In this document: in pieces, positions 12,285-17,264 of the stretch
Numbering within the stretch: position 1 is the first letter of the stretch
Layout: each line of letters begins with the position of its first letter
Source: a bacterium
GTDB taxonomy: Bacteria; Pseudomonadota; Alphaproteobacteria; Rs-D84
Direction: 5' to 3'
Length of the DNA: 64,000 nt
Assembly (NCBI GenBank): GCA_014803525.1
Contig: JAAVBP010000004.1
Coordinates: 121,369-185,368, forward strand
Made by a program: the position numbers and the translations under genes
The notes under the pieces: model-generated
Told to the model about the DNA's origin: nothing
Database searches by the model: none
The model's input: only the letters and a program-made list of their open reading frames with translations

Positions 12285-12651
12285 TTTTTATCCTTTTGTT
12301 TCGGTTTACTATTTAATTTATACCGTGAATTTTTGAAAAAGGAGCTAAATAATGCAGAAATCCGCCATTTTTTACTATTTTTATCAAATGGTGTATTTTA
12401 TCCCTGAAAGGCCACGACAAACAGACAACAAACGGTCATAAAACGCACATAAACGCGAAAATTTCAAGCTGTGGCGCGCGAAAATCCCGAAAATGATAAA
12501 CTATAAGCCAAATTAAAAAGGAGCAACCACAGCTCGAATATACGCTTGTTCGTCAAACATCTTGCCCCACAGGACACAAAGAAAAAAACGACGGAATCAG
12601 TAAAAAATCCGTCGCCTACCTAGTTTTTAGCATAAAACCAGGCCATCAATA

Positions 12652-12688
12652 AAAAACGCCCATTTGTCTGGGCGCTTGTGTTTTTTTA
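12652..12688 (-). terminator. Rho-independent terminator of the autotransporter gene
   Basis: The minus strand reads AAAAAAACACAAGCGCCCAGACAAATGGGCGTTTTTTATT; hairpin GCGCCCAGACAAATGGGCG. Confidence 0.5.
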
Positions 12689-15600
12689 GAACCAATAACG
12701 AATTCCGCTTTTTAGATTCATATAGTGGTCGCCATCCATAAAGTACTGGGCATTACCATACACATCAAACCGACCTGTTTTATAGTCAAAGCCAATCGTT
12801 GCGGCACCACTGTAATCATGTTCGGCATCATCATACAGGTTAAATGTACCATCCAGACCACGAATTCCCAGTTTCATATTATACGTATCTGCCAATTCAC
12901 GATACAACATAATGCCGGAATTAAACTGCAGCGAGCCGCCGGATGATAATTGCTGTTCATATTTGGTAAATAGGCCAAATCCAGCTTCCACGGAATAGAT
13001 TTCATCGGCTGGGATTATCAGGCTAAATGCCTGGTCACTTTCATGGCCGGATTGACGATACATAATCGCGTTCAGACCTAAATCAGGCGCAATCGTCCAA
13101 TTACCAAATGAAACCGGATAGCGCAGGTCGTTATTAAACCCGAATATCTGCTTTTCAATATATCCATCATAGTTCATATCGTTATATCCACGGCGGTTAT
13201 AATGGCTCTTGGCAAATCCAACACGTGGGGTGGATATGAACTCTATATCATCACCGGTATAGGTCATGGGCATATAGAACAGGCCAATCTGATTGCTGCG
13301 GCTGGTACCCAGGTCATCATTTGTGCCAATGTTCGCCATTGCCAGACCATAGCCCAGTTTCCAGTTGTCAGACATCCGGCTGTTGGATATGCCATAGGAA
13401 CCGGAACCGCCATTTGATGAATTACTGAACGAGAAGTGTTCCATAGAGCCGCTGACCTGGTATTCGTCACGGTCACCGTTCATAAACATTTGCTGATTCA
13501 TGCTAAAATTGATTTCACGCATGGCGGACATATCTTCACGGTCAAACTGGGTAAACGCGTTTAAGCCAGACAATCCGTTCAAGATATTATTAAATTCAGC
13601 CATATTTGTGCCGGATTTTAATCCGCCAAAGAATTCTGCGCTGGTTCCTTTGGCATAATTATCAGCCAAATAGGCGGCCAATGATTTGTTATCCGTCAAT
13701 GTATCAAAGGATTTCATTGTCATAACAACATCATTGCCATTATCTGCCAGATTTGCGTCAAACATCGCCGACCCAGAACGCAAATTCAGCTTTGATGTAT
13801 CCCCGGCCTGAATCATGTTTTTGGCAGTATATGTCGTATCAAACCCATCCGCCACAATGTCGGACGATATGTTTAATGTTCCGCTGATGTCATTTTCGGC
13901 GATAAACTGGGAATTTGCGCCGGCAATAACCGCCCCACCCATATCGTCCAGATTCAACGTATTTGCAATCAATTCGCCATTTTGGAACAGGACGCCACCA
14001 TTTAACACAATGGCATTGGCGTGATTTTCATCGCCATCAATGGAAATAGTTCCGGTGTTTGTCACCGTTGCGCCCGATTCCGCATATATACCGTATGCGG
14101 TGGTTGCACCATTGATTGTAATTGTGCCACTGTTGTTAACGGTTGCGCCCGACGTGGCATAAATACCGATTGCTGTACCACCACGTTCAGATTGTGGAAC
14201 ATATGCCATGTTGTCTTTGTCGATATAATTATCTCTTGTTATATTAATACTACCAGTATTAGATACGATTGTATTTCTGTCTGCAAAAATACCAATCGCC
14301 ATTCCTGTTCCAATGTTGTTTATACTAATGGTTCCAGAATTAAAAACATAATTTTTCTGGTCACCAATTGCCACATTGGTAATTCCTATAACCTTTCCAT
14401 CAGATAGATTCTGCATATTTATTATGGATTTATTTTGACGATTAGTAGAAATATTATTTTCGTTATAAACATTTTGATATCCGTACATTCCAATGCCGTT
14501 ACCATGTCCATAATTTATAATGTTTATTATACCAGTAGAATCTAATGAAGTCGCATATTTATAGGAATTATTTAAGCCTTCGCCATTATTGCCTGTTGTT
14601 GTGCTATATAATCCATAGGCATTCCCATTTCCAATATTATACATATTTATTATGCCATTTCCACCCGCTGCATTACTTGGATTTGTATTGACTGTATTAT
14701 ACATCCCATAAGAATTACCAGAACCATAGTTTGTAATTGTTATTGCTGCAACAATAGGGGATTGTGTTTGGCCGGAATTATAAAGTGCACCAGAATTATA
14801 CTGGGCATTATATGTGCCGAATATAGAGGCGGAATCATTATGATTTTCTATGTTAATTGTTCCATTCATAGATGTATTTGCAGTAGAAATAAGGACATTT
14901 GCTACTTCATTACCCCCATTTTCCGCATATAAACCAAAGATACTACCGGAACCCTGATTAAATATATCTATGGAAGCATTCGCGCCCCCTGAATTATAGG
15001 CATTTGCCGCTCTTGTGTGTGTTGTATACATACCATAAACCCGTCCAGAATTTTGCGCATTAGTAATGCGAATTTTGCCGGTTGAATTGCTCGAAGCATT
15101 TACATCTCCCTTTATACCATATATGTTTCCATATCCGGTATTGTCTATAATTATATATCCTGCAGTTTCATAGTAGCTATATCTTACTGCATTAAAATTG
15201 CCAATTAAACCGTATACGTCTCCGTTACCTGTTTTGTTGATGTTTATGATACCTAAACCATCGGCAGCATTGGCGCCACCATCCTTTCCGGTAACAGTTG
15301 CTCTAGAATATGTGGGGATGTTTTTTGTTATATAAATACCATAGTTAGCAGCGCTTTGATTAGTTGTTGACTTTTTTCCGATGATGTCTAGTCCGTCTGA
15401 ACTGGTTATATGTTTTGTTCCATAATAATTCATGCCCGACACAGTACATCCCACGCCCGCTTGCCAATTTCCATAGCCGTCATTGCACACACAAGAAGTG
15501 CCTTTTTGTTGTGCATTTTCACCGCAGTCTAGTGGTATCAAAGAACAGCCTTGACCGTCTTGCCAATTCGTATATCCAGAATTGCATTCACAGCCAGAAC

Positions 15601-16288: not shown

Positions 16289-16496
16289 TGAACAAAGCTC
16301 CTTAATCAATTTTCTGCAATATAAAACAAACCAACGATTGTGGTATATGTGGGATAATATGGGTATCCAAATGCTAAAAATGCTTAATTTCTAAGGCTTT
16401 TTGATTTCTATCATTCAAATTTATCCTAGGAAAAAATAGGTTGAAAAAATCGTTCAATTAAATTGAAGCAATTTATCAACCAAAGGACTATGAAGC

Positions 16497-17096
16497 ATGG
16501 CAGTTATCGGATATATAAGAGTAAGTTCCAATAAACAAACTTGTGAACATCAGCGCTATGAAATCACACAATTTGCAGAGCAGAATCATATCAAAATAGA
16601 CAAGTGGATAGATGAAACCATATCATCACGAAAGCCACTAAACAAAAGAAAGTTAGGACAGTTATTGGATGAATTAAATGACGGCGATATTCTTATTGCT
16701 GCTGAAATATCAAGATTGGGCAGGTCGTTATTGGAAGTCATGCGGATATTGGAAAGTTGCCTTAGTAAGAATTGTCAGGTATTCACGATTAAAGAAGGTT
16801 ATAGACTTGGAAATGATATCAGTAGCAAAGTTATGGCATTTGCTTTTGGTCTATCTGCTGAAATAGAAAGAAATCTTATCAGTCAACGTACCAAGGCATC
16901 ACTAGATAGCATAAAGGCAAAGGGTAAAAAGCTGGGCAGGCCTTTCTCTGCACAATCAAAGAAGCTGAAACTGTCTAAAAATACAAAAAAGATAAAGGGC
17001 TGGCTGGACTCTGGTATGACAAAGTATCGAATTGCTAAAATGATGTCTGTATCACCGGCTACTGTATCGCATTTTATCAATCGTATGGGGTGGTAA
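16497..17096 (+). CDS. Small serine recombinase (resolvase/invertase family with C-terminal HTH)
   Basis: MAVIGYIRVSSNKQ...GDILIAAEISRLGRS catalytic-Ser N-terminal domain; C-terminal HTH KYRIAKMMSVSPATVSHFI; 199 aa. Confidence 0.8.
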   Translation: MAVIGYIRVSSNKQTCEHQRYEITQFAEQNHIKIDKWIDETISSRKPLNKRKLGQLLDELNDGDILIAAEISRLGRSLLEVMRILESCLSKNCQVFTIKEGYRLGNDISSKVMAFAFGLSAEIERNLISQRTKASLDSIKAKGKKLGRPFSAQSKKLKLSKNTKKIKGWLDSGMTKYRIAKMMSVSPATVSHFINRMGW

Positions 17097-17264
17097 TATT
17101 GCTCTGCGCTGGTATGACTTCTTGTCCCATAAGACACAAAGTTCACCTTAGGGTGAATTTTTTTATTTATTAGAATTGGAAATTTAGTTCGAAAAAATAT
17201 TTGCTCCAACAGATTCTATATAACACAAGCACACAAAACTACTTTTGAAAAAAAATGTATCAAA

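Follow-up and report, generated by a model that had tools for sequence, protein, structure and literature searches.

Terminator-like repeats as probable edge marks of an exchangeable cargo slot with an Mpi-type invertase on an alphaproteobacterial tRNA-Tyr island

The island, its surface-protein gene and its invertible switch

We analyzed a 64-kb stretch of DNA (the window) from an uncultured gut alphaproteobacterium of the Candidatus Enterousia group. A low-GC block extends from ~5.8 to 19 kb, and an island of about 13-13.5 kb carrying a serine integrase is located at tRNA-Tyr. Its features are summarized in Table 1. Islands of this family, ~13 kb long and integrated in tRNA genes of uncultured gut Alphaproteobacteria of the same group, have a common backbone with genes for a large serine recombinase, an HUH Rep, a C5 methylase, DUF3768, and the 91-aa protein. 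The 67-aa protein gave no match in protein-family searches, and an Xis-like 84-aa ORF was found at 7427-7681. The tRNA 3'-end sequence TGGTGGGAGTGGCTG is repeated at 5545, the other island end. An integrase gene beside a tRNA gene, with the 3'-end repeat on the opposite side, is consistent with the architecture of a large-serine-recombinase island at a tRNA gene. Repeats of the tRNA-Tyr 3' end are located at 4685, 5545, 5741, and 19036, which suggests tandem accretion at the attachment site. The overlap of the integrase reading frame with the tRNA was also observed in relatives, which show the island arrangement at Tyr, Gln, and Glu tRNAs. No tyrosine recombinase, capsid-related gene, or helper-phage relationship was seen in the island of the window.

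Table 1 Positions of the features described in this study.
Feature	Position	Strand	Basis or remark
Terminator hairpin TTGTGCCCTTCGGGGCACGATGTTT followed by a T-run, 3' of the C5-methylase gene	9732..9756	+	-20.1 kcal/mol, then T7
91-aa backbone gene	12009-12284	-	
Conserved non-coding left backbone, 91-aa gene to copy A	12285..12556		Alignment, blastn blocks
Repeat copy A	12557..12581	+	21-mer match; position kept in related islands
Hairpin hp1 (CGACGGA...TCCGTCG)	12589..12614		A7 before, T5 after; bidirectional terminator-like
AT-rich hairpin CCTAGTTTT-TAGCAT-AAAACCAGG	12619..12642		Homology endpoint of the left backbone
Bidirectional intrinsic terminator of the cargo gene (predicted)	12654..12677		Terminator scan
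1200-aa autotransporter-like surface protein	12686..16288	-	Translation, homology
Left inverted repeat AACGATT of the switch	16333..16339		Alignment A3; family-wide upstream regions
Invertible segment with predicted promoter, ~114 bp between CG cores	16337..16450		Opposite-orientation pairs
Right inverted repeat AATCGTT of the switch	16448..16454		Alignment; family-wide upstream regions
199-aa small serine recombinase, DNA invertase, most probably of the Mpi family	16497..17096	+	PF00239 + HTH; family comparison
Repeat copy B	17117..17141	+	21-mer match; with flanks can form an 8-bp interrupted hairpin
Hairpin hp2 + T7, predicted intrinsic terminator 3' of the invertase	17138..17161	+	Terminator scan
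Conserved tag TTAGAATTGGAA	17170..17181	+	Also seen 3' of terminator hairpins where modules join
67-aa backbone gene, 5' of the integrase gene	17265..17468	+	Conserved in related islands
Large serine recombinase, island integrase	17491..19203	+	Pfam Resolvase, Recombinase, Zn_ribbon_recom; PHROG integrase
tRNA-Tyr	19036-19122	-	Overlapped by the integrase reading frame

The 1200-aa protein begins with MQKILLSLFMIVGINLSCFAAQ and carries a signal peptide, an ankyrin repeat, Cys-rich EGF-like repeats, and repetitive passenger segments; its C-terminus (...GIRYWF) ends in an aromatic residue. The protein itself had no match in local Pfam or NCBIfam scans. PF27417 (BigA_3rd) is recorded for an identical product, and homologs of its last 504 aa (36-45% identity) carry PF03797 under the NCBI name [quoted passage not shown]. 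These matches agree with the autotransporter call made in the first-pass annotation of this DNA. The signal peptide, the predicted C-terminal barrel, and the terminal aromatic residue support assignment to the type Va autotransporters.

The small recombinase matched PF00239 (E = 1.7e-33) and HTH_38, which are common to resolvases and invertases and do not discriminate between them. With NCBIfam NF009949 it scored 271.4 bits over residues 3-197 of 199, 0.6 below the curated cut-off of 272. Homologs with 80-95% identity number in the thousands in gut alphaproteobacterial MAGs, and the family occurs in several copies per genome. The outer half-site of the left inverted repeat, ATATAAAACAAACCAACG, is conserved, as are outer half-sites throughout the family. 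The segment between the repeats is flipped between pairs representing the same locus: L002 versus L003 (with identical invertase proteins), L096 versus L014/L099, L026/L027 versus L103, and L143/L145/L146 versus L144 (L numbers denote the compared loci). Fifty loci had the orientation of the window and 16 the inverted one; for the window locus itself one orientation was available, the commoner. A consensus promoter scan listed nothing within the segment, and its promoter direction is based on a weak consensus match, TTGGAT-17-TATACC, on the minus strand. The orientation in the window would accordingly be ON for the cargo gene. From these comparisons, we identify the recombinase as an invertase, most probably of the Mpi family, that flips a ~114-bp segment with a predicted promoter, which would make expression of the autotransporter-like gene phase-variable. 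A "resolvase" annotated beside a large surface-protein gene is thus an annotation trap corrected here, as the gene encodes an inverton recombinase; the biologically active repeats would be the inverted repeats with a 7-bp core, 160-280 bp upstream, rather than the flanking direct repeats.

The cargo segment that varies among islands covers 12643-16317, the last conserved base of the left backbone being 12642. Islands with near-identical flanks carried different cargo, such as Slam-type lipoprotein loci or a restriction-modification system with SLFN and a MORC-like ATPase, and the slot of relatives contained Ietis, PDC-S06, an OLD/Gabija-like ATPase, or restriction-modification genes. These alignments indicate that cargo turnover between related islands is real. 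The invertase and its switch (16318-~17120) form a conserved unit separate from the variable cargo. The interval 12556-17137, which had been proposed as one module, does not behave as a unit. The region between the direct repeats does hold variable cargo, as the proposed shuffling of the adhesin implied, but not by way of a resolvase-associated cassette.

The repeat pair and its conservation among related islands

Direct repeats lie on both sides of the cargo gene and the invertase gene. Both 21-mers, CTTGCCCCACAGGACACAAAG (copy A, 12561-12581) and CTTGTCCCATAAGACACAAAG (copy B, 17121-17141), are on the plus strand and identical at 18 of 21 positions; the three differences (C/T, C/T, G/A) are transitions only, as first described. 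The similarity extends to 25 nt, ACATCTTGCCCCACAGGACACAAAG versus ACTTCTTGTCCCATAAGACACAAAG, with 21 identical positions. The starts originally given, 12556 and 17117, are 4-5 nt upstream of the 21-mers but within 1 nt of the starts of this extended similarity. The placement of the copies just outside the autotransporter terminator and just after the recombinase gene was confirmed: copy A is 104 nt past the stop of the 1200-aa ORF (12686), beyond two hairpins, and copy B starts 20-24 nt 3' of the recombinase stop codon (17094-17096). Neither copy contains a CG dinucleotide. No further copy with three or fewer mismatches was present in the 64-kb window. A more distant, inverted relative is the terminator hairpin of the methylase gene, which is identical to the reverse complement of copy A (12555-12579) at 21 of 25 positions.

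Taken alone, the match between A and B barely exceeds chance. Direct pairs with 18/21 identity occurred seven times in the 13-kb island, against ~2 in Markov shuffles, and pairs with 21/25 identity twice, against 0.2 expected (~10-fold excess).

We compared 177 fetched loci, picked via their invertase or integrase genes. Copy A was found at the orthologous position in L002, L003, L006-L011, and L175, and copy B in L006-L011, L173/L174, L175, and L176, where hp2 and TTAGAATTGGAA were conserved together with it. Shared flanks (AAACAT.. and ..CACAAAG) accompany both copies at orthologous positions across several island lineages. Since A and B recur at these two sites in islands related to that of the window, we regard them as real, inherited features, and this comparative evidence is decisive.

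The non-coding left backbone showed 83% mean column identity across islands with differing cargo (alignment A1). Hairpin hp1 and the end of the AT-rich hairpin (...AAAACCAGG) are conserved in L002, L003, L006-L010, and L175 despite different cargo to the right, and the homology with these loci stops at 12642/12643/12649. On the right side, the stem base of hp2 overlaps the AAAG ending copy B, and hp2 of L006 contains a compensatory stem change (TTCACC/GGTGAA versus TTCCCC/GGGGAA). The tag TTAGAATTGGAA recurs in L006 (twice), L021, L092, L100, L173, L175, and L176, and a similar tag, ATAAATTGGAAAA, is located 3' of the methylase terminator. TTAGAATTGGAA is probably the -35 region of the promoter of an operon comprising the 67-aa gene and the integrase gene.

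The repeats share the core TGyCCC-N4-GGnCA (dyad TG.CC-N4-GG.CA), in most cases followed by a CACAAAG tail. Together with its flanks, copy B folded at -9.7 kcal/mol (z = -3.0), with hp2 and its T7 directly after. In a sister clade (L014, L021, L092, L100, L025), the homologous motif forms the apex of a canonical hairpin followed by a T-run. The dyad core paired in 74% of cells, compared to 10-51% in slid controls. No convincing stand-alone fold was found for copy A or its orthologs in L002, L006, and L175, and no covariation was detected in the motif core; sequence therefore appears to be conserved as much as structure. The center of copy B varies faster than the adjoining hp2 and promoter: between the window and L175, 14/21 positions agreed in copy B against roughly 90% over the next 100 nt (by eye).

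Module junctions repeatedly coincide, to within a few bases, with the motif's 5' edge, namely at 17117-17121, in L006 copy B2, in L014 copy 2, and in L175 (window-equivalent 12550/12555). Right-backbone homology to L176 and L006 copy B2 begins exactly at 17117, and the invertase unit remains homologous up to 17119-17121 (17107-17121 in comparisons with other loci), the edge of copy B.

Origin and role of the repeats

We consider it probable (roughly 0.6) that A and B are terminator-like marks at the boundaries of a swappable cargo slot, which in this island comes with its own Mpi-type invertase. A and B represent diverged versions of one short hairpin/dyad motif belonging to the backbone of the island family; each adjoins predicted intrinsic-terminator hairpins, and together they mark the left and right edge of the variable slot. 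The repeats probably derive from the GC-rich terminator hairpin typical of the island, which is still intact after the methylase gene. This descent is suggested by the similarity of copy A to the methylase terminator, the hairpins of the sister clade, the fold of copy B, and the pairing of the dyad. The repeats would belong to tandem terminators or insulators shielding backbone operons, chiefly that of the 67-aa gene and the integrase, from cargo transcription.

Cargo would most likely be exchanged by recombination in or beside the shared boundary sequences, with the invertase not involved. The independence from the invertase is indicated by three observations. In L175 (integrase 89% identical), both copies flank SLFN, HATPase, two methylases, and RE_HpaII, and the invertase is absent. 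In L176 (integrase 95% identical), non-invertase sequence lies to the left of copy B. The motif was not found in ~160 other loci carrying the same invertase family (2.1 Mb). No flanking direct repeat was found in more distant islands sharing the cargo-plus-invertase architecture. The idea that the repeats are the ends of a small element or resolvase-associated cassette fails because homologous islands carry the module without them. The precision of the junctions at the 5' edge seems to exceed that of simple homologous exchange and would fit a polar, site-specific process.

A rather unlikely alternative is that the units of motif and hairpin serve as signals for recombination in a cassette system, A and B being the outermost sites of a cassette array. 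Candidate enzymes are the large serine recombinase of the island, its HUH Rep nickase, whose HUH and YxxK motifs are intact, or an enzyme of the host. All ~17 distinct motif copies are co-oriented on one strand regardless of the strand of the adjacent gene, as expected for such signals, and copies border modules on both sides or on one: the Ietis system lies between two copies in L014 (L092 has a single copy), a 142-aa gene lies between B1-hp-A2 and B2-hp in L006, and the SLFN gene abuts copy A in L175. The clustering of junctions at the motif 5' edge points the same way, as does the occurrence of all four combinations of motif type and hp1 type (window, L002, L006, L175), which implies crossovers between the motif and hp1. 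However, the 177 fetched loci, a non-exhaustive sample chosen through invertase or integrase, contained no junction of the deletion, circle, or empty-site type, and the left cargo junction is 62 nt to the right of A, outside the motif. The motif resembles neither the tRNA-derived island ends nor the invertase sites and has no dyad of ~40-50 bp, as att sites of large serine recombinases should have. The island of L002 and L003, which has a tyrosine integrase and lacks Rep, still contains copy A. The flanking copies of L014 differ over their full length, and therefore no hybrid-site pattern is visible. It is improbable, in our estimation, that these islands represent a previously undescribed form of cassette capture, in which small tRNA-integrating islands take up and shuffle cargo modules at co-oriented hairpin sites in the manner of integron attC sites but without a tyrosine integrase. 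Such islands would encode a large serine recombinase together with an HUH Rep, their modules would include phase-variable adhesins with their own invertase and anti-phage systems, and the mechanism could be that Rep nicks or terminates at secondary hairpins resembling an origin.

A and B might instead be operators for a DNA-binding protein of the island that coordinates expression at both slot edges, a reading to which we give little credence. The dyad TG.CC-N4-GG.CA is conserved in sequence without structural covariation, and the copies adjoin the divergent 91-aa gene region and the promoter-like tag of the 67-aa/integrase operon, as operators might. Yet central and some flanking positions vary freely among close relatives, in the sister clade the motif is part of long, canonical stems of terminators, and none of the candidate regulators (the 67-aa, 91-aa, and Xis-like 84-aa proteins) matched a recognizable DNA-binding family.

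It is very improbable that the similarity has no function and that A and B are two decayed terminator relics resembling each other by chance, as might arise because GCCCC...GGGGC hairpins are a common terminator type in this AT-rich genome. A weight-matrix scan did find many generic GCCCC-N4-GGGGC terminators at intermediate scores, 18/21 matches are not rare in the island, and the center of copy B is poorly conserved. Nevertheless, the 21/25 match exceeds expectation ~10-fold, and orthologous retention in several lineages includes flanks (AAACAT.., ..CACAAAG) foreign to a generic hairpin.

Hardly tenable is the original view of a resolvase with a pair of res-like or end sites that resolves or excises the 4.6-kb module: direct repeats bracket the recombinase gene and homology of the invertase unit ends at the edge of B, but the enzyme is an invertase, most probably of the Mpi family, its inverted-repeat sites bear no resemblance to the 21-mer, in which the crossover core (AACG...CGTT) has no counterpart, the motif is missing from ~160 recombinase loci and present in L175 without the recombinase, copy B is absent from L002/L003, which have the left copy only, the repeats of 21-25 bp show no three-subsite res architecture, and the variable unit differs from the A-to-B interval.

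Relation to known systems

Like Tn3/gamma-delta res and SCC (Ccr) cassettes, the locus combines serine recombinases with imperfect direct repeats that bracket cargo. The integrase gave weak matches to CcrA/B/C models, and the tRNA-Tyr 3'-end repeats recall the tandem accretion of SCC cassettes. Unlike in those systems, A and B are unrelated to the tRNA-derived ends and the invertase sites, they lack a three-subsite res structure, and they also occur without the small recombinase. A Tn3/gamma-delta res site (~120 bp, three dimer-binding subsites, in two direct copies) was rejected, as the sequence shared by A and B is just 21-25 nt; alignment revealed no further similarity in their flanks, the sole dyad being the 14-nt core. 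An integron-like cassette array was also rejected, since the island encodes no tyrosine recombinase and the motif hairpins span 14-26 nt, compared to at least 57 bp for attC.

The boundary-sequence concept in mosaic lambdoid phages is a hypothesis from the phage literature. As in those phages, short conserved non-coding junction sequences here coincide with breakpoints of mosaicism, and a hairpin with a T-run is followed by a reused promoter tag, as at tandem terminators. The copies described here differ in being strictly co-oriented, with junctions at one motif edge. Recurrent junctions at co-oriented boundary motifs provide a concrete lead on how the slot may be refilled.

The island also resembles P4-like satellites and defense hotspots in its conserved backbone and its one sharply bounded slot, whose content varies among close relatives and often consists of anti-phage systems (Ietis, OLD/Gabija-like, PDC-S06, restriction-modification). 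In contrast to P4-like hotspots, its integrase is a large serine recombinase with an ORF extending into the target tRNA, its slot can hold a self-contained phase-variation module, and the slot edges bear a repeated terminator-like motif. Some Mpi-like switches travel on small mobile islands, and the single slot of sister islands carries anti-phage systems. As the slot holds either a phase-variable adhesin or anti-phage systems, surface phase variation and phage defense would be linked in one exchangeable locus.

The switch itself resembles the Mpi invertons of Bacteroides fragilis: a serine invertase acts with short inverted repeats around a promoter segment of ~110-135 bp beside surface or outer-membrane genes, both orientations occur in natural populations, and a genome has several copies. 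The present host, a reduced-genome alphaproteobacterium of the order Rs-D84, does not belong to the Bacteroidales. Every switch is accompanied by an adjacent invertase gene of its own, whereas one master enzyme serves distant loci in the Mpi system, the cargo consists of autotransporters, YadA-like adhesins, Slam loci, and OMPs instead of capsule operons, and the switch in this window is carried on a mobile island. Mpi-like switches serving adhesins, Slam loci, and OMPs form an expanded family in Candidatus Enterousia and related gut Alphaproteobacteria, whose genomes are <1 Mb. In some loci, the right repeat (AAACGTTC) resembles the Mpi consensus, ARACGTWCGT.

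Slot-flanking repeats and the tRNA-Tyr island

The first-pass annotation reported two 21-mers that match at 18 of 21 positions with every difference a transition, and this was confirmed in the sequence. The similarity reaches four bases further upstream (copy A, 12557-12581; copy B, 17117-17141; 21/25), which explains why the annotated start coordinates fell within 1 nt of 12557 and 17117. No further copy of the 21-mer with three or fewer mismatches was present in the 64-kb window. Taken alone, the A/B match is statistically weak. Within the 13-kb island, seven direct pairs of at least 18/21 were observed versus about two in Markov shuffles, and two pairs of at least 21/25 versus 0.2 in shuffles. 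We judged the repeat to be real because it is conserved in relatives, not because of the match statistics. Neither copy contains any CG or resembles the switch repeats, and no viral contig scanned matched either motif variant.

GC content is low from approximately 5.8 to 19 kb, and the end of this block is a tRNA-Tyr gene. The 3' end of the tRNA (TGGTGGGAGTGG...) is repeated at 5545 (5545-5565), with shorter versions at 4685 (4685-4697) and 5741 (5741-5753). Based on the copy at 5545 and the one at 19036-19050, the island was therefore placed at about 5545-19050. The three extra 3'-end copies left of the island suggest tandem accretion or remnants of earlier elements. The Rep is probably an island-encoded HUH nickase, predicted to be active.

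Window positions 2009-22284 are 100% identical to ENA ERZ27267576 contig k119_613, and the nearest genomes are MAGs labelled Alphaproteobacteria or Candidatus Enterousia. The order Rs-D84 is an uncultured gut lineage with genomes smaller than about 1 Mb (PMC12306168). Genome contigs scanned with the integrase contained no close relative. Exact-protein look-ups with the invertase, the cargo protein and the 67-aa gene gave no match in an incomplete index, the window sequence itself being public in ENA. Neisseria- and Pasteurella-type uptake sequences were absent. Rfam detected tRNAs only, with no match in the conserved non-coding region 12250-12700 and sub-threshold noise at 4600-5900.

Features of the island and of the cargo slot in related islands (L014, L021, L100 and L175 are loci fetched for comparison through invertase or integrase genes)
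Feature	Locus	Position	Strand	Remark
C5 methylase	window	7937-9715		low-GC block
Rolling-circle Rep, 191 aa	window	10127-10702		three rolling-circle motifs: HITLT, LHAHIV (HUH, intact) and YILK (YxxK, intact)
DUF3768 fragment and 91-aa gene	window		-	low-GC block
Copy A 21-mer	window	12561-12581	+	CTTGCCCCACAGGACACAAAG
Left-backbone tag				GATAAACTATAAGCC
Cargo ORF, 1200 aa	window	12686-16288	-	
Left switch repeat	window	16333-16339		AACGATT
Flipping segment	window	16337-16450		
Right switch repeat	window	16448-16454		AATCGTT
Invertase, 199 aa	window	16497-17096		
Copy B 21-mer	window	17121-17141	+	CTTGTCCCATAAGACACAAAG
Hairpin hp2 and T7	window	17138-17168		directly after copy B; terminator scan
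67-aa gene	window			between invertase and integrase
Large serine recombinase (integrase)	window	17491-19203		reading frame extends into tRNA
tRNA-Tyr	window	19036-19122	-	tRNA gene search
IetA/IetS	L014	10689-13942		
PDC-S06	L021	10677-13196		
OLD/AriA/GajA-like ATPase	L100	10612-12402		
HpaII restriction-modification with SLFN_AlbA_2 and MORC-like HATPase	L175	2948-9611		

Predicted promoter switch and its cargo gene

The recombinase gave a full-length match of 271.4 bits (cut-off 272) to the NCBIfam model NF009949 (master DNA invertase Mpi family), and thousands of 199-aa homologs with 80-95% identity occur in gut metagenomes. Alignment of the 190-bp gap between the invertase and cargo genes revealed inversion. 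Two related loci with identical invertase proteins, L002 and L003, are cleanly inverted relative to each other between ...AAACCAACG and CGTTCTATT..., and opposite orientations at the same locus were also found for L096 versus L014/L099, L026/L027 versus L103, and L143/L145/L146 versus L144. From the L096/L014 comparison, the crossover maps to the CG of AACG/CGTT. Among loci with both repeats recognised by strict patterns, to which the census was restricted, 50 were oriented as in the window and 16 were inverted. We interpret the segment between the cargo and invertase genes as an invertible promoter (inverton), the promoter itself being predicted.

When the module was compared with plasmids and phages by blastn, only stretches of about 140 nt in Bacteroidales invertase genes were matched. 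The switch works like the Mpi invertons of Bacteroides and nearly meets the sequence threshold of that family. Three differences set it apart from them: an adjacent invertase for every single switch, an alphaproteobacterial host and, in this window, carriage on a mobile island.

Genes adjacent to the switches all encode surface or outer-membrane proteins, namely autotransporters, YadA-anchor proteins, Slam/SlipAM loci and Opacity-type barrels. The cargo protein of the window has a signal peptide and the C-terminus ...GIRYWF. PF27417 (BigA_3rd) is on record for an identical product, and both PF03797 and an NCBI autotransporter name are attached to homologs of the C-terminal 504 aa. The protein itself gave no hit in local Pfam and NCBIfam scans, and PDB sequence searches with this protein and with Rep were uninformative. 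From its termini and homologs, we consider the cargo protein autotransporter-like.

Cargo slot and the origin of its boundary motif

Homology to the left backbone ends at 12642/12643 in L002, L003, L006-L010 and L175. The conserved switch-plus-invertase unit begins at 16315-16318, the outer edge of the left switch repeat, and ends at 17107-17121, while homology to the right backbone starts at 17117. As these breakpoints are fixed, the truly variable segment is 12643-16317. Switch and invertase, found in more than 150 contexts, form a separate portable unit. Sister islands carry anti-phage systems in the same slot or in the gap between the invertase and the 67-aa gene/integrase operon. The island resembles satellite-type elements with a single cargo/defence hotspot; nothing here is categorically new, and the one lead for further work is the co-oriented boundary motifs at the cargo junctions.

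The repeats are not part of the invertase system. Their common motif was absent from about 160 further invertase loci (2.1 Mb), and no flanking direct repeat of at least 18/21 was found in 19 more distant islands with the 91-aa gene, cargo, invertase and integrase. L002 and L003 have the left copy only, and their homology to the window stops at 17119, just before copy B. In L175, the integrase of which is 89% identical to that of the window, the backbone is the same (Rep, a 116-aa gene, DUF3768 and the 91-aa gene on the left; a 70-aa gene and the integrase on the right). The slot of L175 has no invertase and contains SLFN_AlbA_2, HATPase_c_3, two C5 methylases and RE_HpaII. Its left edge carries an A-type copy followed by hp1, the hairpin just beyond copy A, and ...AAAACCAGG; at its right edge, hp2 and TAGAATTGGAA come after a B-type copy. 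L176, whose integrase is 95% identical, begins to match the window exactly at 17117 and differs to the left of this position.

We compared the repeats with the terminators of the island. The methylase terminator (9732-9756) is a perfect hairpin of 12 bp followed by T7 (-20.1 kcal/mol), and copy A matches its reverse complement at 21/25, equal to its match with copy B. The homologous sequence in a sister clade (L014, L021, L092, L100 and L025), GTGGTcTGCCCCrTCGGTCAAACCAC, forms the apex of a canonical hairpin that has a T-run behind it. Copy A is followed by hp1 (12589-12614; A7 before, T5 after) and then by an AT-rich hairpin ending at 12642. Together with its flanks, copy B has a folding energy of -9.7 kcal/mol (z = -3), and the hp2 stem shows a compensatory change in L006; A-type copies alone gave no convincing fold. 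The right-backbone tag TTAGAATTGGAA, probably a -35 region, lies downstream of terminators, the one behind the methylase gene among them, and is reused at module junctions. For the 14-nt core TG.CC-N4-GG.CA, in-register pairing was found in 74% of cells versus 10-51% for slid controls, and no covariation was detected in the motif hairpin core. The likeness to the methylase terminator, the sister-clade hairpins, the adjacent terminators and the in-register pairing support the reading that A and B are diverged copies of the island's terminator hairpin, persisting at module boundaries and with putative present-day termination (probability about 0.58).

Several features of the motif go beyond what passive terminators predict. 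About 17 distinct copies all lie on the same strand. In L014, two copies enclose the Ietis system, and L092 has one copy; the 142-aa gene of L006 and the SLFN gene of L175 abut the 5' edge of a copy. The window, L002, L006 and L175 between them show all four combinations of a motif type with an hp1 type. Repeated homologous exchange through shared "linker" sequences fits the co-oriented copies, the bracketed modules and the four combinations. These features also fit a polar site-specific process, for which the candidate enzymes are the large serine recombinase and the HUH Rep. Against the site-specific reading, the loci compared yielded no deletion, circle or empty-site junction, the left junction lies 62 nt away from copy A, and the motif is unlike the tRNA-derived ends of the island. 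Moreover, the two L014 copies differ over their whole length with no hybrids, and copy A is retained in L002 and L003, where the island has a tyrosine integrase and no Rep. It is therefore unlikely that A and B are cassette sites.

The first-pass annotation had proposed a resolvase-associated cassette, with a res-site pair or the ends of a small non-autonomous element as examples; this mechanism is largely wrong, and the res-site reading is now highly improbable, as the enzyme is an invertase and the motif is missing from about 160 further invertase loci but present in L175 without an invertase; its idea that the adhesin is exchanged independently of the island was right in spirit, because the slot or gap of relatives holds other cargo. 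Use of A/B by the invertase (no AACG/CGTT core), att sites of the large serine recombinase (no similarity to the tRNA-derived ends) and integron attC sites (no IntI, too short) were dropped.

Additional features of the island lineages

In every island lineage, the integrase ORF crosses the island end into the 3' part of an opposite-strand tRNA gene, and integration or excision should therefore alter the C-terminal tail of the enzyme. The targeted tRNAs are Tyr (window, L175, L176), Gln (L021, L100, L173) and Glu (L014), and each recombinase lineage has a different target. The "140-aa gene" that follows the invertase in L173 (5476-5898) and in L174 is a C-terminal large serine recombinase remnant fused to tRNA-Gln; this is a decayed island with a surviving switch module.

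An 84-aa ORF (7427-7681) carries a helix-turn-helix signature resembling those of excisionase/AlpA proteins (..LSPSEVVRIVGVSLKTLRKWR..) and may be a directionality factor or an island regulator. Another direct repeat (8458-8482 and 17703-17727; 22/25, with 19 consecutive identical bases, TCATTGAAATGCTGGATTT) links the N-terminal part of the methylase ORF and the integrase gene, both in frame (..IEMLDF..), and this match is far above chance. The GC-rich region 5220-5700 contains a duplicated 56-nt unit (5300-5355 and 5646-5701, 88% identity) with tRNA-like 3' ends and had no Rfam or ARAGORN match; pieces of it recur beside invertase modules in five loci (L005, L172, L003, L016 and L102).

In L001, a second contig of the ENA assembly (ERZ27267576 k119_31921), GyrB is identical to that of window 50924-53323 and the contig ends about 2 kb upstream of GyrB, suggesting two co-assembled strains or an assembly break near window position 48.8 kb. 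A core of about 13 nt (GCAGAAATCCGCC) between an A-run and a T-run (window 12345-12372; L175 2755-2785) sits within the conserved stretch of non-coding DNA upstream of the 91-aa gene. Its orientation is the same in the window and L175 and opposite in L002, L003 and L006 (alignment A1, columns ~60-95); this inversion may reflect the flip of a hairpin loop or a second, tiny switch.
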